DNA of 64,000 bases from a virus (taxonomy: Duplodnaviria > Caudoviricetes): the IMG/VR virus record IMGVR_UViG_3300035696_003004, positions 8,988-72,987 of that record; one strand, 5' to 3'. Below the pieces are notes generated by a model, which saw only the letters and a list, made by a program, of their open reading frames with translations, searched no databases and was not told where the DNA came from. Numbering within the stretch: position 1 is the first letter of the stretch; each line of letters begins with the position of its first letter. Shown here in pieces: positions 20,386-63,774 of this stretch. The translations under genes were made by a program, and so were the position numbers.

Positions 20386-20639
20386 ATTGATTATAGCGCG
20401 GTTTTGGGCAGGAAAAAGCCAGCCCGGGGCGAAGTGGGCTGGCTCATTAGGTGGTGAAGCAAGCAGATTTAAGTGTAGCAAGGGCGGTGTCTCTCAACCA
20501 AGAAAGTATGACCCAATGACCCCAAGAGGTCGGCCGCCCTTGCATGAAGATCATTATAGTCGAGAATGATTGTTTATAACCAAAAATATTAATTTTCTGC
20601 TGTGAGGTAGCTTGTTGTTCATTATGATACGGTTTATCT

Positions 20640-20654
20640 GTCCAGATTCTGGAC
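20640..20654. promoter_or_regulatory. 15-bp palindrome, copy 4, between a putative -10 and the SD of the 20665 ORF
   Basis: GTCCAGATTCTGGAC directly followed by TGGAGG SD. Confidence 0.6.
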
Positions 20655-20664
20655 TGGAGGACGT

Positions 20665-21111
20665 GTGGGCAAAAAGTTATGTACAGCGAGTAGAAAGCAG
20701 GTTCCGGCGATTGTTGCGGAGGTGCTGGCGGCTTTAAGTTTGTCTGATGAAAAGGAGATTGTGTCGGAGATCCAGCGTCTGCAAGAGTGTGCGCTCGAAC
20801 TGATCGAATTGAAGCGATCCTTTTTTCGTATTGCGCAGATGTTCCTCGTGGAACATAAAGGGCTTCACCCTTTGAAGCTTACGGCTGAAGAAAGCTACCA
20901 GATAAATCGGATCATTACGGATGCGGATATGATGGTTGAGGAACTACAGTTTGAAAATTACCGGTTGCGGAAGGAACTAAAAAATCTTATTGGCAAGGCG
21001 CAAAATAAGAGGCAAAATGTCAAGAAGCAGGTGCATCATGGCAACAAAAGCGGAAAAAGAAAAACAAGCACTTCACAAAGAGTGCAGGGCCCGACGAAGC
21101 GAATGGATTGA
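20665..21111 (+). CDS. Hypothetical coiled-coil protein
   Basis: GGAGG SD and GTG start; 148 aa. Confidence 0.65.
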   Translation: MGKKLCTASRKQVPAIVAEVLAALSLSDEKEIVSEIQRLQECALELIELKRSFFRIAQMFLVEHKGLHPLKLTAEESYQINRIITDADMMVEELQFENYRLRKELKNLIGKAQNKRQNVKKQVHHGNKSGKRKTSTSQRVQGPTKRMD

Positions 21112-21280
21112 ATTTCGGAGAAAGTATTTGTTTACGCAGAAGCGGCTGGCGGAAGTTTTAGGGATCAGCCGGCGAACGGTACAGATGATCGAAGGTGAGC
21201 GGGTTGAAAGGCCGCATCCGGACACGCTGCGGGCATTCCTTACGCTCAAGATCAAGCACGAGCGCGGCGAAACGATGTAG
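21038..21280 (+). CDS. XRE-family HTH protein
   Basis: TQKRLAEVLGISRRTVQMIEGE; its TAG stop is part of the first array repeat. Confidence 0.85.
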   Translation: MATKAEKEKQALHKECRARRSEWIEFRRKYLFTQKRLAEVLGISRRTVQMIEGERVERPHPDTLRAFLTLKIKHERGETM

Positions 21281-21941
21281 CGCTTGGCAGTGCATCGGAC
21301 AGATGCAACCGCTGCGTCGAAGGTCCGAGTATGCAACAACCAAATGGCAATGGTTTTGTAGTGCATTGAGCTAATGCAACTCCGATGTATTGGAACTTAC
21401 AAACGACAACGTGGAGTAGCAACAAATTTGCAGTGCATTGAAAAATGCAACGGTATTTTCCACGACGAAAGCTTTGTAGTGCATCGAATGGATGCAACAG
21501 ATAGGGGATATCCGCGTATACTTTTCCCGACACGTATCAAGTAATTTGTAGTGTATCGGATGAATGCAACCTAATACTGTATCTACTCCGGCTCAAGCTA
21601 AGGCGCGTATCAAGTAATTTGTAGTGCATCGGATGGATGCAACGTCAAACGTACAATTGTCAAAACGTTAATTTGATCGGCACAACAAAGTCGCAGTGCA
21701 TTGAATAGATGCAACCCCCACATCGCTGCGTTTGTAGGATTGGAAATACGTGGCAACAAACAAGCTGTGCATCGGGCAGATGTAACACCGGCCAATCCGC
21801 AAGCAGTGTGCTGCAAAGCACAACGACATGGCCTCTACGCTAGTGAGTTCACTGAATAAGTGAAACAACTCAAGGTGAATGCAGAGCGTTGGACAAACGC
21901 AACGGCTTCGAGAAATCGGGAGTGCATCAAACAAATGCAAC
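21277..21941 (+). CRISPR. Degenerate CRISPR-like array: 8 divergent ~37-nt repeats (mostly 34-36-nt spacers, one shortened unit), then 4 tandem ~38-nt hairpin units
   Basis: Repeats end at 21309, 21380, 21451, 21498, 21570, 21643, 21715 and 21786 (GTAGTGCATCGNNNGATGCAAC core). Later hairpin-AAC units end at 21824, 21866, 21903 and 21941. Same family as the reverse complement of the 53894 array. Confidence 0.8.
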
Positions 21942-22042
21942 AATTGCACTGGATGCATAAATAGGGCATTACACAAATTCATTTTTGTGCTAGTGATATA
22001 GTAAGTGTGCAAAAATGCACCAACTTAGAAAGGCGGTTTTCT

Positions 22043-22456
22043 ATGCCTGAAGACGAAGGCTATACGGAAGGTTTAACGGGAGAAGAGATCATTTTGGACG
22101 TTCTCGATCAACTAGACAAGAAACTTCACACTGATTGCAATTTGCGTGAAACGGATGCCTATCCCGGCGGCTACGATGGTTGGATTGAATACTTTTTACG
22201 CCCACGCGGCTTGGATACGGTCGAAGTTCGATCAAAAATTATTGTCGGCTCACCCGCGCTTTCCGGCCAAGTGAAAAAGGTTGTGGAAGGTCGTATTGAC
22301 ATTCCACTTGAAACAAGTCTAAATGTCGTTCGTGAACGGAGTAGCCAAGGCGTTCCTACGTTATCTAAAGATGAAAACGGTCAGCCCATTGTCGTAAAGC
22401 GCCAATATCGACGTCGTAACGTAGAAACAACCGCAGTACCAGAAGAAACAAAATAG
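22043..22456 (+). CDS. Hypothetical protein (start of late operon)
   Basis: AAGG SD; TGATATAGT extended -10 near 21993. Confidence 0.65.
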   Translation: MPEDEGYTEGLTGEEIILDVLDQLDKKLHTDCNLRETDAYPGGYDGWIEYFLRPRGLDTVEVRSKIIVGSPALSGQVKKVVEGRIDIPLETSLNVVRERSSQGVPTLSKDENGQPIVVKRQYRRRNVETTAVPEETK

Positions 22457-22459
22457 TCT

Positions 22460-22831
22460 TTGAGCGTATACGGAGAAATGCTTATGCTCTTAGAACAGGA
22501 TGAACGATTCGTACACGCCCTCGAACAAATCGCGGCAGCGCTAAAGGGTATCGATGAAACCAGGAAACAAGAATTCGAACGGCGGTTCCCGGTCCGGAAA
22601 GAATTCCGGGAAGCCATTGTTACACGTGTCCCTTCCGAAGAAGACCGAATCCGCGAAGAGCACGGCGCCAGCACAGGATCGCTTGAAGAATGGCTTGGCG
22701 AACTTGGGGGGGAGGAATTCATTGGAACGCGAGAGCGCGAGTTCCTTGAACGCAATGCCAGTTCCCCAAAAATTGAAAATCCAGACGAAGCGAACGACGG
22801 GGGCTCTAAAGCGTCTGAAGGTACAGCCTGA
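22460..22831 (+). CDS. Hypothetical protein
   Basis: 123-aa acidic ORF; start uncertain. Confidence 0.5.
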   Translation: MSVYGEMLMLLEQDERFVHALEQIAAALKGIDETRKQEFERRFPVRKEFREAIVTRVPSEEDRIREEHGASTGSLEEWLGELGGEEFIGTREREFLERNASSPKIENPDEANDGGSKASEGTA

Positions 22832-23393
22832 AGACGTTGCCAAAGCTCCACAAATAACTCCCCTGTTAAGACAAGCCGAAGGTGGTCTCGATGCCGTCCT
22901 AAGCGCTATGCGCTTTGCCCCCCAAAACGAGGCAATCAACGCTTTTCTCAAAAAATATGATTCCATCCCGCCTAGCGATCGTGAACGATTGCCTTGGGAA
23001 GCAATCGCTCTATCCGCCGCAATTGATATCAATCAGCTCCTCGGTTCCATTATGTTTGCGATCCAGTCCCAAACCGCCAATACCGTAAAACTGATCGCAA
23101 TGACTTCTCAGCCATTAGTAACTCGTGCCCGAGTTCGCTATGCTCAGTTGCCTAGTGGCGACCGTGATCGCACGGCACTCGATACAGCCTATGGCTTCCT
23201 GCCATCTCCTAAAGGTCCAACTTTTATCGGTAAAGCCGTCTTCGGCGCACAATCCGCCAAAAACGATAACGACGATGCAATTGATGCACAAGAAACCTTC
23301 GGCGAAGATGACGACCTGGACGATCTTTTCCCCTCCTGCGCGGCTATGCAGGAAAGACTATTGCCCATTCGGCAACGGCAGCTTCCGTCATGA
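22755..23393 (+). CDS. Possible terminase small subunit
   Basis: Position upstream of TerL, helical body, acidic C-terminus. Start uncertain (track gives 22554). Confidence 0.4.
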   Translation: MPVPQKLKIQTKRTTGALKRLKVQPEDVAKAPQITPLLRQAEGGLDAVLSAMRFAPQNEAINAFLKKYDSIPPSDRERLPWEAIALSAAIDINQLLGSIMFAIQSQTANTVKLIAMTSQPLVTRARVRYAQLPSGDRDRTALDTAYGFLPSPKGPTFIGKAVFGAQSAKNDNDDAIDAQETFGEDDDLDDLFPSCAAMQERLLPIRQRQLPS

Positions 23394-23812
23394 AAATTGT
23401 TTTTCTGGACTTTGATGGACCAATTATCCCGCAAATGTCCCACGATGATAATCATCCTATGGATGCATGGCCTTCCTGCATTGCCGCTTTAAACCGAATT
23501 ACTGATACAACAGATGCCAAAATCGTTGTTAGCAGTACTTGGCGGGCAGGCGGATTGTCCGAAATGCGTAATTTGCTATCCAAATGGGGCGCAAACGCCG
23601 AAGTGATTGGTCTTACCCCCGTTCTCTTAAACGAAACTCGCGGTAAAGAAATTGCCGAATACTTGAAAGCGCATCCAGAAACCGAATCCTTTGTTATTCT
23701 GGATGATGACGATGACATGGATGAATCGCTGCCGTTTTTGGTTATAACTCCGTTTGCAACCGGCTTAACAGAAAAACATGCTGACCGGGCGATTAAGATA
23801 TTGAACGGCTAA
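23390..23812 (+). CDS. HAD-superfamily (Swiss Army Knife RNA-repair-like) protein
   Basis: VFLDFDGPI, IVVSSTWR, RGKEI, FVILDDDDDM. Confidence 0.88.
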   Translation: MKIVFLDFDGPIIPQMSHDDNHPMDAWPSCIAALNRITDTTDAKIVVSSTWRAGGLSEMRNLLSKWGANAEVIGLTPVLLNETRGKEIAEYLKAHPETESFVILDDDDDMDESLPFLVITPFATGLTEKHADRAIKILNG

Positions 23813-24041
23813 TTATCAATCATGAAGGTGCAAAATGGTTCTACTTGATATGCGTTCCTTTTGGGATGGATTTGCTTGCGGAAGTCTTGCAATTATATTC
23901 ATTTGCATGGGCTTGATGTTTCTTGTGCAACACTTCAATAGCAAATAGATAAAATACCGCGATCGCAAAACTACTTCAAAGTAGCTTTTGAAAGAACTAC
24001 TTGACACCACGCACAATTCGGCTTAAATGTAAAAGCAATCG

Positions 24042-24120
24042 TTGAGCGACATGCCCCTCGCCTTTGGCGGGAACAAGCAATGGCTCAAGACCAGCAATGG
24101 CCTTGGGCCATTGTTGTTTT
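24042..24120 (+). promoter_or_regulatory. Conserved structured late leader/attenuator, copy A
   Basis: TTGAGCgaCATGC-hairpin-GAACAAGC-AATGGCTCAAG...CTTGGGCCATT plus T-rich tail; TTGACA at 24001. Confidence 0.8.
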
Positions 24121-24148
24121 TGCGCCAAATATCCCCAAGGAGGAAATT

Positions 24149-24262
24149 ATGGCATCTCGCAAACGTATCAGTTCGGCTAAATGTGCACAGGTCCGCAAGG
24201 GCACCGACCGCATTAAAAAGCTCGGCAAACGCGCCAGCAAAACCATTGCCGTAAAAGGTTAG
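24149..24262 (+). CDS. 37-aa Lys/Arg-rich microprotein
   Basis: AAGGAGG SD; MASRKRISSAKCAQVRKGTDRIKKLGKRASKTIAVKG. Confidence 0.7.
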   Translation: MASRKRISSAKCAQVRKGTDRIKKLGKRASKTIAVKG

Positions 24263-24285
24263 CGGCATAAGCCCCGGAGACCGAA

Positions 24286-24411
24286 ATGAAATCGACCAAG
24301 CGTGTAGGCAAAGTAAACCTTGTGCAACTTAAAAAAATGCGTCCACCTGTTCATGACGTTAGCAAGCGAATGGATAAAGCACCAGGCAAAACAGCTCGGG
24401 GAAAACTTTAA
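24286..24411 (+). CDS. 41-aa Lys/Arg-rich microprotein (not in ORF track)
   Basis: GGAG SD; MKSTKRVGKVNLVQLKKMRPPVHDVSKRMDKAPGKTARGKL. Confidence 0.6.
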   Translation: MKSTKRVGKVNLVQLKKMRPPVHDVSKRMDKAPGKTARGKL

Positions 24412-24439: not shown

Positions 24440-26587
24440 ATGTATTCAGAACGCGTTATCTTGGCCAATTTGGACGAGTTTGCAGCTCGTGAAGGATGGA
24501 TGCCAGTCTATCATTCGCTCGATCAAGTAGAGGAATTTAAGAAGTATATCGACTCTATTGTAAAAGTTGAAAGCAATTCTCGATCTTCCTATGTAACTCT
24601 TATTCGTACCATCACCGAAAAACGGCGCAAGGAGATCTGGCATTGGATCGAAAACGAACAGGCATTGTGCGGACTCGATTCGAACTATTTCGAATCTCGC
24701 TACGCCTATGTGTGCGATGAAAAAGGGCAGATATTTAAATTTAAAAATCGGCTTTCCCAACAAATTTTCGATTCCGTAATTGCCGACTTCGATGAACGGC
24801 AAGTATCAATCGAGTTACTAATAATCAAGGCAAGACAAGTCGGAGTAACCACAAAAACAGCACTAAAGTTTATTCAAAAATTACTTTTTATTCCACATAC
24901 GCAAGCCGTAATGGCTTCTGTCCAATCGGATAAATCCGAGTTGATTGGTCGCATTTTGAATACCGTCTATAACCATTGTCCTTGGTGGCTGGTACCACGT
25001 TCGCTGCCCAAAGGTGCTTATGATAATGGCTCAATTCTTTCAATTCAGTCAGGTATGCAAGCGACCGGAATCGCTCAAGGATGGACTCCAACAGCCATAC
25101 ACGTCTCGGAGCTGGCTGATATACCGAAACCGAAAAAAGTGATCGAAGAGGGTTTACTTAGGGCCACTCACTCTTCCCGCAACTTGTTTTTGGTTTTTGA
25201 AGGAACTGGCGGCGGTAATACTGGCTGGCTGGCAGATACTTGGCGTGCATCCAAAGAAGATTGGCCTAAAGGCCGCGCACGGCTTTGCCCGATTTTTATT
25301 CCTTGGGTAATGGTACCAGATCTGTATCCGGAACCAGATTGGATTCGTAAATTCCCCGTTCCAGGCGGTTGGCATCCAAATGAAGCTACGCATAAGCATA
25401 TAACGCGCTGCGAACTTTATGTTCGTAATACTCCATATTTAACCAAAGTTGTTGGCAAAGATTGGAGAATGCCAGTCGAACAAAAGTGGTTTTGGGAATT
25501 TAACTACATGCAAGCATGCAAGAACCATACTCAAAAAATTTGGCTCGCGCAGATGGCTGCCGATGATCATGAAGCATTAACCGGTGTTTACGATAGTGTA
25601 TTTGAACCAGAAACAATCGACGAGATCGAAAAGTTTAATTACGTAATTCATACGGATGGAAGAACGCGACGGAAAAAATCGCTTCAGGCATATGCAATCA
25701 CAGGTGATTCGATCGATGATAGCTTTAATCCAGATGAATCGTTAATTGATTACGAAAAAATGCATATTCGTGTCTCGTGGCAATCCGATCGTGGACAAAA
25801 ATTTTTTTGGACGCTTGTTCCTTTAAAACCAATAGACGAAGAAGATGAAAACGACACGCTCGACAAACTTTTGGTATACGAAGAACCTCAATCGGGCTGC
25901 GACTATAGCTGCGGAATCGATACGGCCGATGGCCTAGGAAAAGAAGACGAAGACCGTACTTGCGTTTCAATGACGCGAAATCGGTTTGGTGATGAGTGCG
26001 ATTATCAGGTCTGCGAACTAACTTCAAATAGGATAAATTCTGCACAAATTGTAGGCTTTGCCGCATGCATGGCGGCTTGGTATGGCGAACATACAAAAAA
26101 TCCGCTTGGCGTCAAATTCTGTGTCGAACAGATCAGTCGGCCGGGGGATACCTGCCAGCATCAGCTAAAGTTAATGGGCTTTCATTATCATCACAAGCCG
26201 CGGCGCTACGACAGTAAGAAAATCAAAGATGATTCCGGGAAAAAGGAAGGTTGGTTTTCCAACGTATGGAGCGTACCTATCTTGATGACGCGTTTTACCG
26301 AAGCCGTGAATGGCGGTTGGTACCGGCCAGCGTCAAAATGGCTAATCGAGGAATTAAAAACACTAGAACGCCATGAAGCTGCAGGCCGGGCTTCGAAAAT
26401 GATCCATCGTAGTGGCTATCACGATGATCGTGTACGTGCCGCTGCGCAGTCTTACTTCACCATTCACGATATGGATGTGTTAGCAGATCGGGCGCAACGG
26501 CGTTATTCGCCCCCGACAGATAGCAATCCACCGCTTAGTCGATCAAAATGCTCGGTCAACAACGTATGTGTAGGAGGATGGGATTGA
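24440..26587 (+). CDS. terL: Terminase large subunit
   Basis: Walker A IIKARQVGVTT, Walker B-like HVSE, motif EGTG, nuclease GIDTADG and HDDRV; lies upstream of the portal. Confidence 0.9.
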   Translation: MYSERVILANLDEFAAREGWMPVYHSLDQVEEFKKYIDSIVKVESNSRSSYVTLIRTITEKRRKEIWHWIENEQALCGLDSNYFESRYAYVCDEKGQIFKFKNRLSQQIFDSVIADFDERQVSIELLIIKARQVGVTTKTALKFIQKLLFIPHTQAVMASVQSDKSELIGRILNTVYNHCPWWLVPRSLPKGAYDNGSILSIQSGMQATGIAQGWTPTAIHVSELADIPKPKKVIEEGLLRATHSSRNLFLVFEGTGGGNTGWLADTWRASKEDWPKGRARLCPIFIPWVMVPDLYPEPDWIRKFPVPGGWHPNEATHKHITRCELYVRNTPYLTKVVGKDWRMPVEQKWFWEFNYMQACKNHTQKIWLAQMAADDHEALTGVYDSVFEPETIDEIEKFNYVIHTDGRTRRKKSLQAYAITGDSIDDSFNPDESLIDYEKMHIRVSWQSDRGQKFFWTLVPLKPIDEEDENDTLDKLLVYEEPQSGCDYSCGIDTADGLGKEDEDRTCVSMTRNRFGDECDYQVCELTSNRINSAQIVGFAACMAAWYGEHTKNPLGVKFCVEQISRPGDTCQHQLKLMGFHYHHKPRRYDSKKIKDDSGKKEGWFSNVWSVPILMTRFTEAVNGGWYRPASKWLIEELKTLERHEAAGRASKMIHRSGYHDDRVRAAAQSYFTIHDMDVLADRAQRRYSPPTDSNPPLSRSKCSVNNVCVGGWD

Positions 26588-53887: not shown

Positions 53888-53893
53888 TGCGTT

Positions 53894-54144
53894 GTTGCAT
53901 CTATTCGATGCATTACAAAACCGTTGCTACTCGAGCTGGTGGCTTGGATCTAGCCAAACCACATAGTTGCATCTGTTCGATGCACTACAAAACCGTTGCT
54001 ACGGAACAACTGCGACTTGAAAACGAGGCGTTTCTAATTGCATCTGTTCGATGCACTACAAACCGTTGCTACATACTCTTCCGCACGACCAAATCGTAAA
54101 TGGCCAAGTTGCATCTGTTCGATGCACTACAAAACCGTTGCTAC
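53894..54144 (-). CRISPR. CRISPR mini-array: 4 repeats (37/37/36/37 nt), 3 spacers (35/34/35 nt)
   Basis: Plus-strand repeat GTTGCATCTGTTCGATGCACTACAAAACCGTTGCTAC at 53894, 53966, 54037 and 54108. The most degenerate copy is leftmost and an AT-rich flank is on the right, implying minus-strand transcription (GTAGCAACGGTTTTGTAGTGCATCGAACAGATGCAAC). Confidence 0.92.
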
Positions 54145-54320
54145 AACACAATTATAACTATTTTGTTTTGAATGGCCACAAGCTGCTTTCCGCGAACCGC
54201 GTAAATTTGTGCTTTTCAATTGTAACGAGCGGCACAATACTCATTCTATCTCTTTCAAAATCAGCATATTATCCCTTCCGCAAACTTTTTGAAGTTTTAC
54301 CGAAACTGAAGGTTCGCGCA

Positions 54321-62879: not shown

Positions 62880-62964
62880 GCGCGCATGGCGGAGTTGGTA
62901 GACGCAACCGGCCTAAAACCGAATGGCTTCGGCCGTGGGGGTTCGAGTCCCTCTGCGCGCACCA
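62880..62964 (+). tRNA. tRNA-Leu (anticodon UAA), atypical anticodon arm
   Basis: GCGCGCA/TGCGCGC acceptor, long variable arm, TTCGAGT T-loop, encoded CCA; C33 and two stem mismatches. Confidence 0.85.
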
Positions 62965-62968
62965 AATT

Positions 62969-63054
62969 GGAGAGTGGGCAGGACGGTAATGCAACGGTCT
63001 GCTAAACCGTGCGGGTGAAAGCCCGAGCCGGTTCAACTCCGGCACTCTCCGCCA
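62969..63054 (+). tRNA. tRNA-Ser (GCU)
   Basis: GGAGAGT/ACTCTCC acceptor, ACGGT-CT GCT AA-ACCGT, G73, CCA. Confidence 0.95.
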
Positions 63055-63068
63055 GATTGAAGGACGAA

Positions 63069-63251
63069 ATGCAAAAAGGCAAGAATGACTGCGACGAATT
63101 GCCGAGTGGAAAATGGGTGCAGCGCGTACCGCGGAGTTTGCATGCAAAGCTACAAAAATTGGCCATACGCGAGGGCGTGAGTATGAATACTTTGGTAACC
63201 GCTATTCTTGCCGAGCGAGTTGGAGTAAAAAATTTAAAACGGAAGGGTTGA
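63069..63251 (+). CDS. HicB-like ribbon-helix-helix protein (no HicA adjacent)
   Basis: SGKWVQRVPRSLHAKL...A..EGVSMNTLV; stop lies inside the next tRNA. Confidence 0.7.
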   Translation: MQKGKNDCDELPSGKWVQRVPRSLHAKLQKLAIREGVSMNTLVTAILAERVGVKNLKRKG

Positions 63252-63329
63252 GCAATGGTCGCTTCTCCGCTTGGAAAGCGGACGGTCCTCTTCAAGGCCA
63301 TGCGCGTTCGAATCGCGTCCCTTCCGCCA
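63241..63329 (+). tRNA. tRNA-Ser (GGA)
   Basis: GGAAGGG/CCCTTCC acceptor, TCCGC-TT GGA AA-GCGGA, G73, CCA. Confidence 0.95.
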
Positions 63330-63330
63330 C

Positions 63331-63418
63331 GGTAGCGTTGGGCATATGGTAAGCCCACCTCGTTCGAAGCGAGACACGGTGAAAACCGTTGCGTGTTCGA
63401 CTCACGCCGCTACCGCCA
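63331..63418 (+). tRNA. tRNA-Ser (CGA)
   Basis: GGTAGCG/CGCTACC acceptor, CTCG-TT CGA AG-CGAG, G73, CCA. Confidence 0.92.
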
Positions 63419-63428
63419 GGTTGGATGC

Positions 63429-63635
63429 ATGATGGCGCATTGGATCGTTGAAACAACGAAATGTAGACTTTGCGGCAAGGTAAGCTACGAAAGCCGCGAG
63501 GATGCAAAGTATGCGGCAAAAGCAATAGTTGCGACGATGGTTCCGTATGAATGTCCTTACGGAAACGGCTGGCATTTGACGACAGTACGGAAGCGTGGGC
63601 GAGTGGTTGATGCCAGCGGTTTTGAAAACCGCTAG
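63429..63635 (+). CDS. Small Zn-finger-like protein overlapping tRNA-Ser(UGA)
   Basis: CRLCGK.SY.S..DA..A...YECP..NGWHLT. Confidence 0.55.
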   Translation: MMAHWIVETTKCRLCGKVSYESREDAKYAAKAIVATMVPYECPYGNGWHLTTVRKRGRVVDASGFENR

Positions 63636-63676
63636 GCCGAAAGGTCTCGTGAGTCCGAATCTCACCGCTTCCGCCA
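63589..63676 (+). tRNA. tRNA-Ser (UGA)
   Basis: GGAAGCG/CGCTTCC acceptor, GCGGT-TT TGA AA-ACCGC, G73, CCA; T-loop TCCGAAT. Confidence 0.93.
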
Positions 63677-63682
63677 AATTGG

Positions 63683-63774
63683 GCGCCGGTGGCAGAGTGG
63701 CGAATGCGGCAGGCTGTAGCCGTGCCCTCCTGAGTTAGCTAACACCGTGGGTTCGATTCCTACCCGGCGCACCA
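63683..63774 (+). tRNA. tRNA-Tyr (GUA), atypical anticodon arm
   Basis: GCGCCGG/CCGGCGC acceptor, GCAGG-CT GTA GC-CGTGC, 21-nt variable region, A73, CCA. Confidence 0.8.

Follow-up and report, generated by a model that had tools for sequence, protein, structure and literature searches.

Compact hairpin units at the end of a provirus array: a probable source of short guides for a Cas12m (type V-M)-like protein

The analysed stretch of 64,000 nucleotides, hereafter the window, corresponds to bases 8988-72987 of a 72,987-base IMG/VR provirus record which is rated 54% complete. This record encodes an ERF recombinase, a P4-type integrase, DNA methylases, and a primase-helicase. Three tRNA genes close to its right end (62880-63771) are the only elements that Rfam reports at gathering thresholds. 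The INPHARED phage collection yielded no DNA match for the region 20600-24400, which contains the features described below. An XRE-type HTH gene (20990..21280, + strand; Pfam HTH_3, E 2.7e-5) ends with the stop codon TAG at 21278-21280, and the first handle of a hairpin array, termed array A, follows after 8 nt. Array A (21289-21941, + strand) consists of 12 hairpin units and lies between this stop codon and a gene which starts at 22043. No terminator-like site is found between the XRE gene and the array. The gene-array junction is the same in the related loci L031 and L182, where the stop codon of the XRE gene overlaps the first handle. The first gene downstream of the array (22043..22456, + strand), which has no assigned function, leads towards the large terminase gene (24440-26587).

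The long-period part of array A (21289..21786, + strand) carries eight handles (21289-21309, 21360-21380, 21432-21451, 21478-21498, 21550-21570, 21623-21643, 21695-21715, and 21766-21786) which score 18.6-33.7 bits with the covariance model R1 (see below). Periods are 71-73 nt, with a single one of 46-47 nt, and the long units contain inserts of spacer length (34-36 nt). From one unit to the next, the 3′ hairpin is retained but the 5′ half of the repeat has drifted, and Tandem Repeats Finder reported nothing in the array. The spacer at 21499-21533 has a 15-nt identical core and further similarity in common with a spacer in an unrelated locus (L152:206-284), which suggests that the arrays are vertically inherited rather than newly acquired.

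A second array, array B (53890..54145, - strand), is regular. It has four near-identical repeats of 36-37 nt (GTAGCAACGGTTTTGTAGTGCATCGAACAGATGCAAC) and three spacers of 34-35 nt, its R1 scores are 24.4-34.3 bits, and a TATAAT is located just upstream. The last 21 nt at the 3′ side of its repeat form the handle that array A also carries. Because this 3′ handle is common to both and the 5′ halves have drifted in only one of them, array A is considered a degenerate version of array B. Near-identical repeats of ~23-50 nt, as are generic for CRISPR, are present in array B but not in array A and its tail, where only the fold and the AG/AC flanks are common to the units. Nor does the tail have uniform unique spacers, its segments being 16-21 nt long where array B and most members of the family have 34-36 nt.

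The tail of array A (21787-21941) attracted attention in an initial annotation, in which four hairpin units were listed that end at 21824, 21866, 21903, and 21941 (steps of 38, 42, 37, and 38). Upon rereading of the sequence, these positions and steps proved to be exact. The stems are indeed paired, occupy the same position in each unit, and differ in sequence, but they comprise 6 bp, one pair more than the 4-5 bp originally given. All four units follow one plan: AG, a 6-bp stem, a loop of 4-5 nt, and AC. The variable part, estimated at ~15 nt, is in fact short, with 16-21 nt measured between handles.

The units, all on the + strand, are arranged as follows. Variable segment 1 (21787..21804, 18 nt) has a weak resemblance to a repeat 5′ half (GGC-CAAT...CAAGC, compared with the 5′ half of unit 8), so that at least one tail unit may be a spacer-less repeat. 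It is followed by tail handle 1 (21805..21824; stem TGTGCT/AGCACA, loop GCAA), which has six Watson-Crick pairs and an R1 score of 21.1 bits (E 0.022). Segment 2 (21825..21845, 21 nt), which has no match in its own record at ≤3 mismatches, precedes tail handle 2 (21846..21866; TTCACT/AGTGAA, loop GAATA), also with six Watson-Crick pairs (R1 21.7 bits). Segment 3 (21867..21882) is 16 nt long and obtains a score of -3.8 with a matrix for repeat 5′ halves. In tail handle 3 (21883..21903; AGCGTT/AACGCA, loop GGACA; R1 17.0 bits, E 0.16), the outer pair is an A·A mismatch. Segment 4 (21904..21920, 17 nt) starts with CTTCGAGAA, for which L031 and L182 have a weakly similar ATTCAAAAC at the corresponding position. 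Finally, tail handle 4 (21921..21941; TGCATC/AATGCA, loop AAACA) reaches 26.0 bits (E 0.002) with a C·A mismatch as its inner pair. Thus, two of the four tail handles carry one mismatch each.

The 5′ strand of tail handle 4, TGCATC, pairs perfectly also with GATGCA at 21952-21957 (region 21923-21957). The predicted minimum-energy fold takes this alternative, which is not conserved in L182. The folding energy of 21760-22045 as a whole is ordinary (z = -1.46), so that the signal is one of repeated architecture and not of stability. The architecture itself was searched for with a sequence-blind scan (AG, six pairs with ≤1 mismatch and ≤1 G·U, a loop of 4-5 nt, AC). Dinucleotide-shuffled 64-kb windows contain 9.4 ± 3.1 matches per window on both strands. 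Within the 155-nt tail, four matches are observed compared to 0.02 expected per tail shuffle, and three or more matches were reached in 0 of 5000 shuffles. Shuffled controls, which had been proposed together with the initial annotation, therefore do not generate similar periodic hairpins. The covariance model that had been suggested alongside was also built. Model R1 was trained on 139 distinct units, all of them from other contigs, and its top 16 matches in the 64-kb window are exactly the units of arrays A and B. All four tail units are recovered above the best match outside the arrays (14.1 bits). Together with the presence in the same record of array B, which has the same handle, this ranking supports the assignment of the tail units to a CRISPR-type array.

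The handle core was found in IMG/VR contigs (41 stretches) as well as in JGI metagenome contigs (>120 stretches), often with several arrays per contig. These contigs are from peat phage and metagenome sources, and the dominant array period is 70-73 nt. Among the 139 distinct units, the outer three stem pairs are ~95% conserved and the inner three covary (AU/GC 99/24, UA/CG 81/44, CG/UA 82/30), with the observed level reached in 0 of 500 shuffles of units that had been preselected for pairing. On the sense strand, G·U-type pairs outnumber A·C-type pairs by 42 to 20, which favours an RNA read in the direction of the repeat over a site in duplex DNA. The tail stems are one or two compensatory base pairs away from variants of the family such as TGCGCT/AGCGCA, TGCACT/AGTGCA, and TGCGTC/GACGCA. 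Their sequences do differ, but to call them "wholly rewritten", as had been done, is an overstatement. The outer TGC/GCA pairs, ~95% conserved in the family, are altered in three of the four tail handles, so binding of an effector to these handles is not assured.

Counterparts of the tail are found in related phages. The layout of XRE gene, array, promoter, and gene is syntenic in L182 and in the L031 group, and so is the tail, with stems that differ by paired changes. Short units with non-canonical paired stems are present there at corresponding places; the counterpart of tail handle 2 is GGTGCT/AGCACC in L182 and GGTACT/AGTATC in L031. One 18-nt segment is identical at 15 of 18 positions between these two loci while their other spacers differ. 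With compensatory changes seen within the window, across the family, and at the syntenic positions in L182 and L031, the earlier proposal that fold rather than sequence is kept is borne out, and these substitutions show that selection keeps the handle fold.

Short units recur elsewhere in the family: among 746 unique inter-handle segments, 23 have a length of 16-24 nt and ~22 have a length of 26-29 nt. When scored with the 5′-half matrix, true repeat 5′ halves average +11.7 and spacers -16.2, and the short segments are placed between these values, mostly from -14 to 0. This indicates that most short units have lost the 5′ half of the repeat and keep a short variable stretch. The closest relative, IMGVR_UViG_3300036421_000021 (represented by L010 and L013), is colinear from the ERF gene to the primase gene, and one of its arrays (L013:1507-1932) intersperses three short units (37-39 nt) with units of 70-74 nt. 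Its three arrays are located elsewhere: before the ERF gene, after a block of small genes, and directly before the integrase gene (L010:1-570, L013:1507-1932, and L013:2380-3470). As array positions differ in the closest relative, arrays either move or arise independently within this phage group. Some arrays of the family (L070, L152, L180, L091, L187) are interrupted by inserts of 130-190 nt which carry motifs of the TTTGGGGGCAT type and a GGTTTGAATCC that resembles a tRNA T-arm. Near the integrase gene of our record (L009:3660-3930), there are comparable motifs which may be attachment-site or arm-site sequences.

Downstream of the tail, a promoter-like element (TTTTTGTGCTAGTGATATAGTAA; 21982..22004, + strand) with an extended -10 (TGaTATAGT) is conserved with ≤3 mismatches at the same place in L031, L043, L049, L104, L116, L128, and L182. 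It was not called by a simple sigma-70 scan. Between this element and the ribosome-binding site of the next gene, there is a degenerate handle-like hairpin (22004..22024, + strand; GTGCA, AAAA, TGCAC, then CAAC), which R1 does not detect in the window. L031 and L182 carry a canonical handle at this position. As the handle follows a conserved promoter-like element there (21982-22042 in our window), the mRNA of the downstream gene may begin with a handle of the Cas12m type, in which case the "guide" would consist of the 5′ UTR and the ribosome-binding site.

A candidate effector was found by clustering all ORFs near arrays. This family of proteins (690-770 aa; ~100 clusters at 90% identity), which the sources name only as "hypothetical" or "zinc ribbon", has a C-terminal Cas12f1-like TNB domain (E 3e-13). 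Using a profile of 17 members, the best solved relative is Cas12m (23vw, E 4.9e-20), and an AlphaFold model (pLDDT 81) has Cas12m2/Cas12m as its first matches (8hhl, E 4.9e-19, TM 0.44/0.53; 8pm4), while the identity to solved Cas12m proteins is only ~14%. Most members have the RuvC triad (D/E)-E-D, with D and E alternating in RuvC-I. All three catalytic residues have been lost in member P0097. In nine of nine distinct loci, which encode proteins of 730-770 aa, the effector gene is followed by handle arrays of its own strand, and in five of these loci the first array begins within ~230 nt; L192 has a handle array also upstream. The arrays which adjoin the effector gene have identical repeats. 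The effector loci (L055:1735-3972, L126:841-3153 on the - strand, L184:3513-5702, and L188-L195) belong to phages from peat samples, and the sources attribute two homologues, from MAGs, to Terracidiphilus sp. Neither the effector gene nor any cas gene is found in the 73-kb record that carries the window, which is 54% complete. A weak PF07282 match in a 232-aa ORF upstream of array B was dismissed as noise since this ORF has no cysteines and no profile similarity to the effector. The protein atlas yielded no usable information on this ORF.

Matches to the variable segments were sought in several datasets. Protospacers for the short or long segments were found neither in our record nor outside arrays in 1.1 Mb of related contigs; the thresholds were ≤3 mismatches in 17 nt for tail segments against the record (54% complete) and ≤1 mismatch in 16 nt against the relatives. 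The first 22 nt of array B spacers 1 and 3 have no exact match in IMG/VR. Any guide function is thus putative. When one genome per species was searched (185,579 species), CRISPR arrays with the handle repeat were not encountered and only single chance matches were obtained. The variant stems of the tail, used as patterns against IMG/VR, likewise gave isolated chance matches and no arrays. The initial annotation had envisaged processing by a Cas6/Cas12-type protein of the host; in relatives, the protein associated with the arrays is a Cas12m-like effector carried by the phages themselves, and no host array with this repeat was encountered among the species genomes searched.

That selection maintains the tail as part of a Cas12m-like array is, in our view, very likely. 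The more specific reading that we prefer, to which we assign a probability of about 0.6, is that it represents the distal, compacted end of a phage-borne Cas12m (type V-M)-like array which gives compact crRNAs with guides of 16-21 nt. By its sequence, each tail unit is a minimal crRNA handle: a G·A pair closes a 6-bp helix at -8..-3, the loop of 4-5 nt is usually G-first, and C occupies position -1. Rightward transcription would run through both the XRE gene and array A. Each handle would be bound by a Cas12m-like effector, which would cut upstream of it; the effector might be supplied in trans by the missing part of the prophage, by a co-resident phage, or by the host. Each tail unit would then give a crRNA of a 21-nt handle and a 16-21-nt guide, which is about the 17-bp full R-loop of Cas12m2. 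Binding of DNA by the effector without cutting is assumed by analogy to the solved Cas12m proteins, and the tail crRNAs would accordingly silence their targets rather than have them cut. A bolder version, which we consider unlikely, holds that the tail contains hard-wired, vertically inherited guides of ~17 nt by which a temperate phage programmes a non-cutting Cas12m-like protein to silence genes of the host or of rival phages. If this were true, the sequence of the handles could vary freely provided that their fold is preserved, and the tail would be an RNA-guided gene-control module and not an immune memory.

Other explanations have to be weighed against this. One is that the hairpins are functionless leftovers, the tail being the trailer end of an old array that is losing its spacers and its repeat sequence by neutral decay. 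Degeneration is common in trailer repeats of CRISPR arrays, and repeats have drifted across the whole of array A. Tail handles 3 and 4 are mismatched, the AAACA loop departs from the G-first consensus, and R1 gives lower scores here than for the other units of the array. However, stem positions that are ~95% conserved elsewhere have changed on both sides in handles 1 and 2 with all six pairs intact, the AG and AC flanks are retained in four of four units, and a similar layout with stems that differ and yet are paired is seen in L182 and L031. Four intact architectures in 155 nt are not expected under drift, and we give little credence to decay. That the hairpins act as double-stranded DNA, namely as palindromic operators, packaging sites, or origin repeats for a phage protein such as the adjacent XRE regulator, is very improbable. 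The palindromes lie beside an HTH gene, and the terminase gene follows 2.5 kb downstream, as might be the case for such sites, but stem sequences differ within one array, all copies have a single orientation, the bias towards G·U-type pairs (42 compared to 20) points to RNA, and units of this kind are also arranged as regular repeat-spacer arrays immediately downstream of a cas12-like gene.

Two further explanations retain the link to a Cas12m-like protein. The units could be regulatory and crRNA-like, in the style of CreR or tracr-L, with fixed guides of partial complementarity through which a non-cutting Cas12m-like protein represses promoters of phage or host, for example to time the expression of the operon from 22043. 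We regard this as rather improbable. The tail is located just upstream of the promoter-like element, relatives have a canonical handle between that element and the ribosome-binding site, the 18-nt segment is retained at 15 of 18 positions between L031 and L182 despite differing other spacers, and degenerate-repeat regulatory mini-arrays are known for types I, II, and V-A (PMC10120712). Set against these observations are the lack of a match at ≤3 mismatches in 17 nt in our record (where partial matches cannot be judged as the PAM is unknown) and the failure of the 1.1 Mb of related contigs to give a match at ≤1 mismatch in 16 nt. Alternatively, the handles might be Racr-like RNA decoys which soak up or mis-load a Cas12m-like effector, be it from the host or from a rival phage, with the variable segments as mere linkers. 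That single viral repeat units can inhibit Cas proteins is established (PMC11656645), arrays are present in the record but the effector is not, and the position of array A after an ORF of unknown function and an XRE gene is reminiscent of acr-aca layouts. This explanation, too, we find quite improbable. One 90-kb contig (Ga0255348_1000020) has both the effector locus L126 and an irregular short-unit array (L075), the repeat occurs in no array of the 185,579 species genomes, and the long units of array A retain guide-like inserts of 34-36 nt. The variant stems of the tail correspond to the repeat of no other IMG/VR array, which weakens the case for decoys tuned to other effectors.

If the tail is a compacted array end as we prefer to assume, type V-M-like phage arrays can shrink to units of a handle and 17 nt and lose their repeat identity in the process. 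CRISPR finders based on repeats would probably miss such compact arrays, so that virus-borne RNA-guided systems may be undercounted. The data also indicate a large, apparently unnamed family of Cas12m-like effectors in peat-derived phages. Were the conserved short guides beside promoters functional, they would provide a natural case in which a virus controls genes in the manner of CRISPR interference. For the engineering of compact DNA-binding Cas12m tools, the 21-nt minimal handle might be of interest. In the literature that we searched, there is no description of a V-M-like array with units of a 21-nt handle and ~17 nt and with stems that drift by compensation; a search with the repeat core retrieved unrelated primers only.

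Precedents exist for type V-M systems, for viral mini-arrays, and for degenerate regulatory repeats, and the array was compared to each of them. Lambda-like boxB antitermination hairpins and REP/RAYT elements, which were considered in view of loops that start with G and of a GTAG that precedes some stems, were dropped given array B and the cas12-linked arrays. The Cas12 "hacker" (bioRxiv 10.1101/2025.01.20.633832) does not match as it needs a tracrRNA and has 500-700 aa. As in CreR, CreA, tracr-L, and scaRNA (PMC10120712), there are degenerate repeats and short conserved spacer-like segments near promoters, but no partially complementary target was found here, and elements of this kind are not described for type V-M. 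Like viral mini-arrays and RNA anti-CRISPRs (PMC11656645), the repeat units are carried on a virus record without cas genes and follow a small ORF and an HTH gene. The known cases copy a host repeat, in contrast to the one analysed here, for which none was found in 185,579 species genomes; in addition, the cognate effector is encoded by related phages, and there are 12 units in a single array and not 1-2.

The closest correspondence is to type V-M, for which MmCas12m2 and GoCas12m have been studied (PMC10442227, PMC11013384). Cas12m functions with a crRNA alone, processes it within the repeat, and binds DNA without cutting (PMC11013384), and V-M systems are carried by mobile elements, namely plasmids and some prophages (PMC11656645). 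There are differences: the effector of relatives has 730-770 aa and ~14% identity compared to a Cas12m of ~600 aa, the handles in the window have a loop of 4-5 nt in place of the longer inner stem-loop of the Cas12m scaffold, array A repeats are unlike one another, the tail has no repeat 5′ half and only 16-21 nt between handles, and the record has no effector gene. Common to both are a repeat-derived handle located 5′ of the guide and, by prediction, the use of 17 bp of guide. In the Cas12m2 scaffold, G(-23) and A(-2) form a non-canonical pair, C(-22)-C(-17) is paired with G(-8)-G(-3), C(-1) precedes the guide, and the full R-loop has 17 bp (PMC10442227). Handles of the window have G(-20)·A(-2), six pairs between -19..-14 and -8..-3, and C(-1). 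This geometry explains the "AG before, AAC after" of the initial annotation, and the short-guide format that it suggested is not new in kind, as the handle has the known Cas12m scaffold geometry and 17 bp are the full R-loop of Cas12m2. By sequence logic, the 3′ 6-bp helix at -8..-3, the G·A pair, and C(-1) of the type V-M scaffold (PMC10442227) are present in all four tail units.
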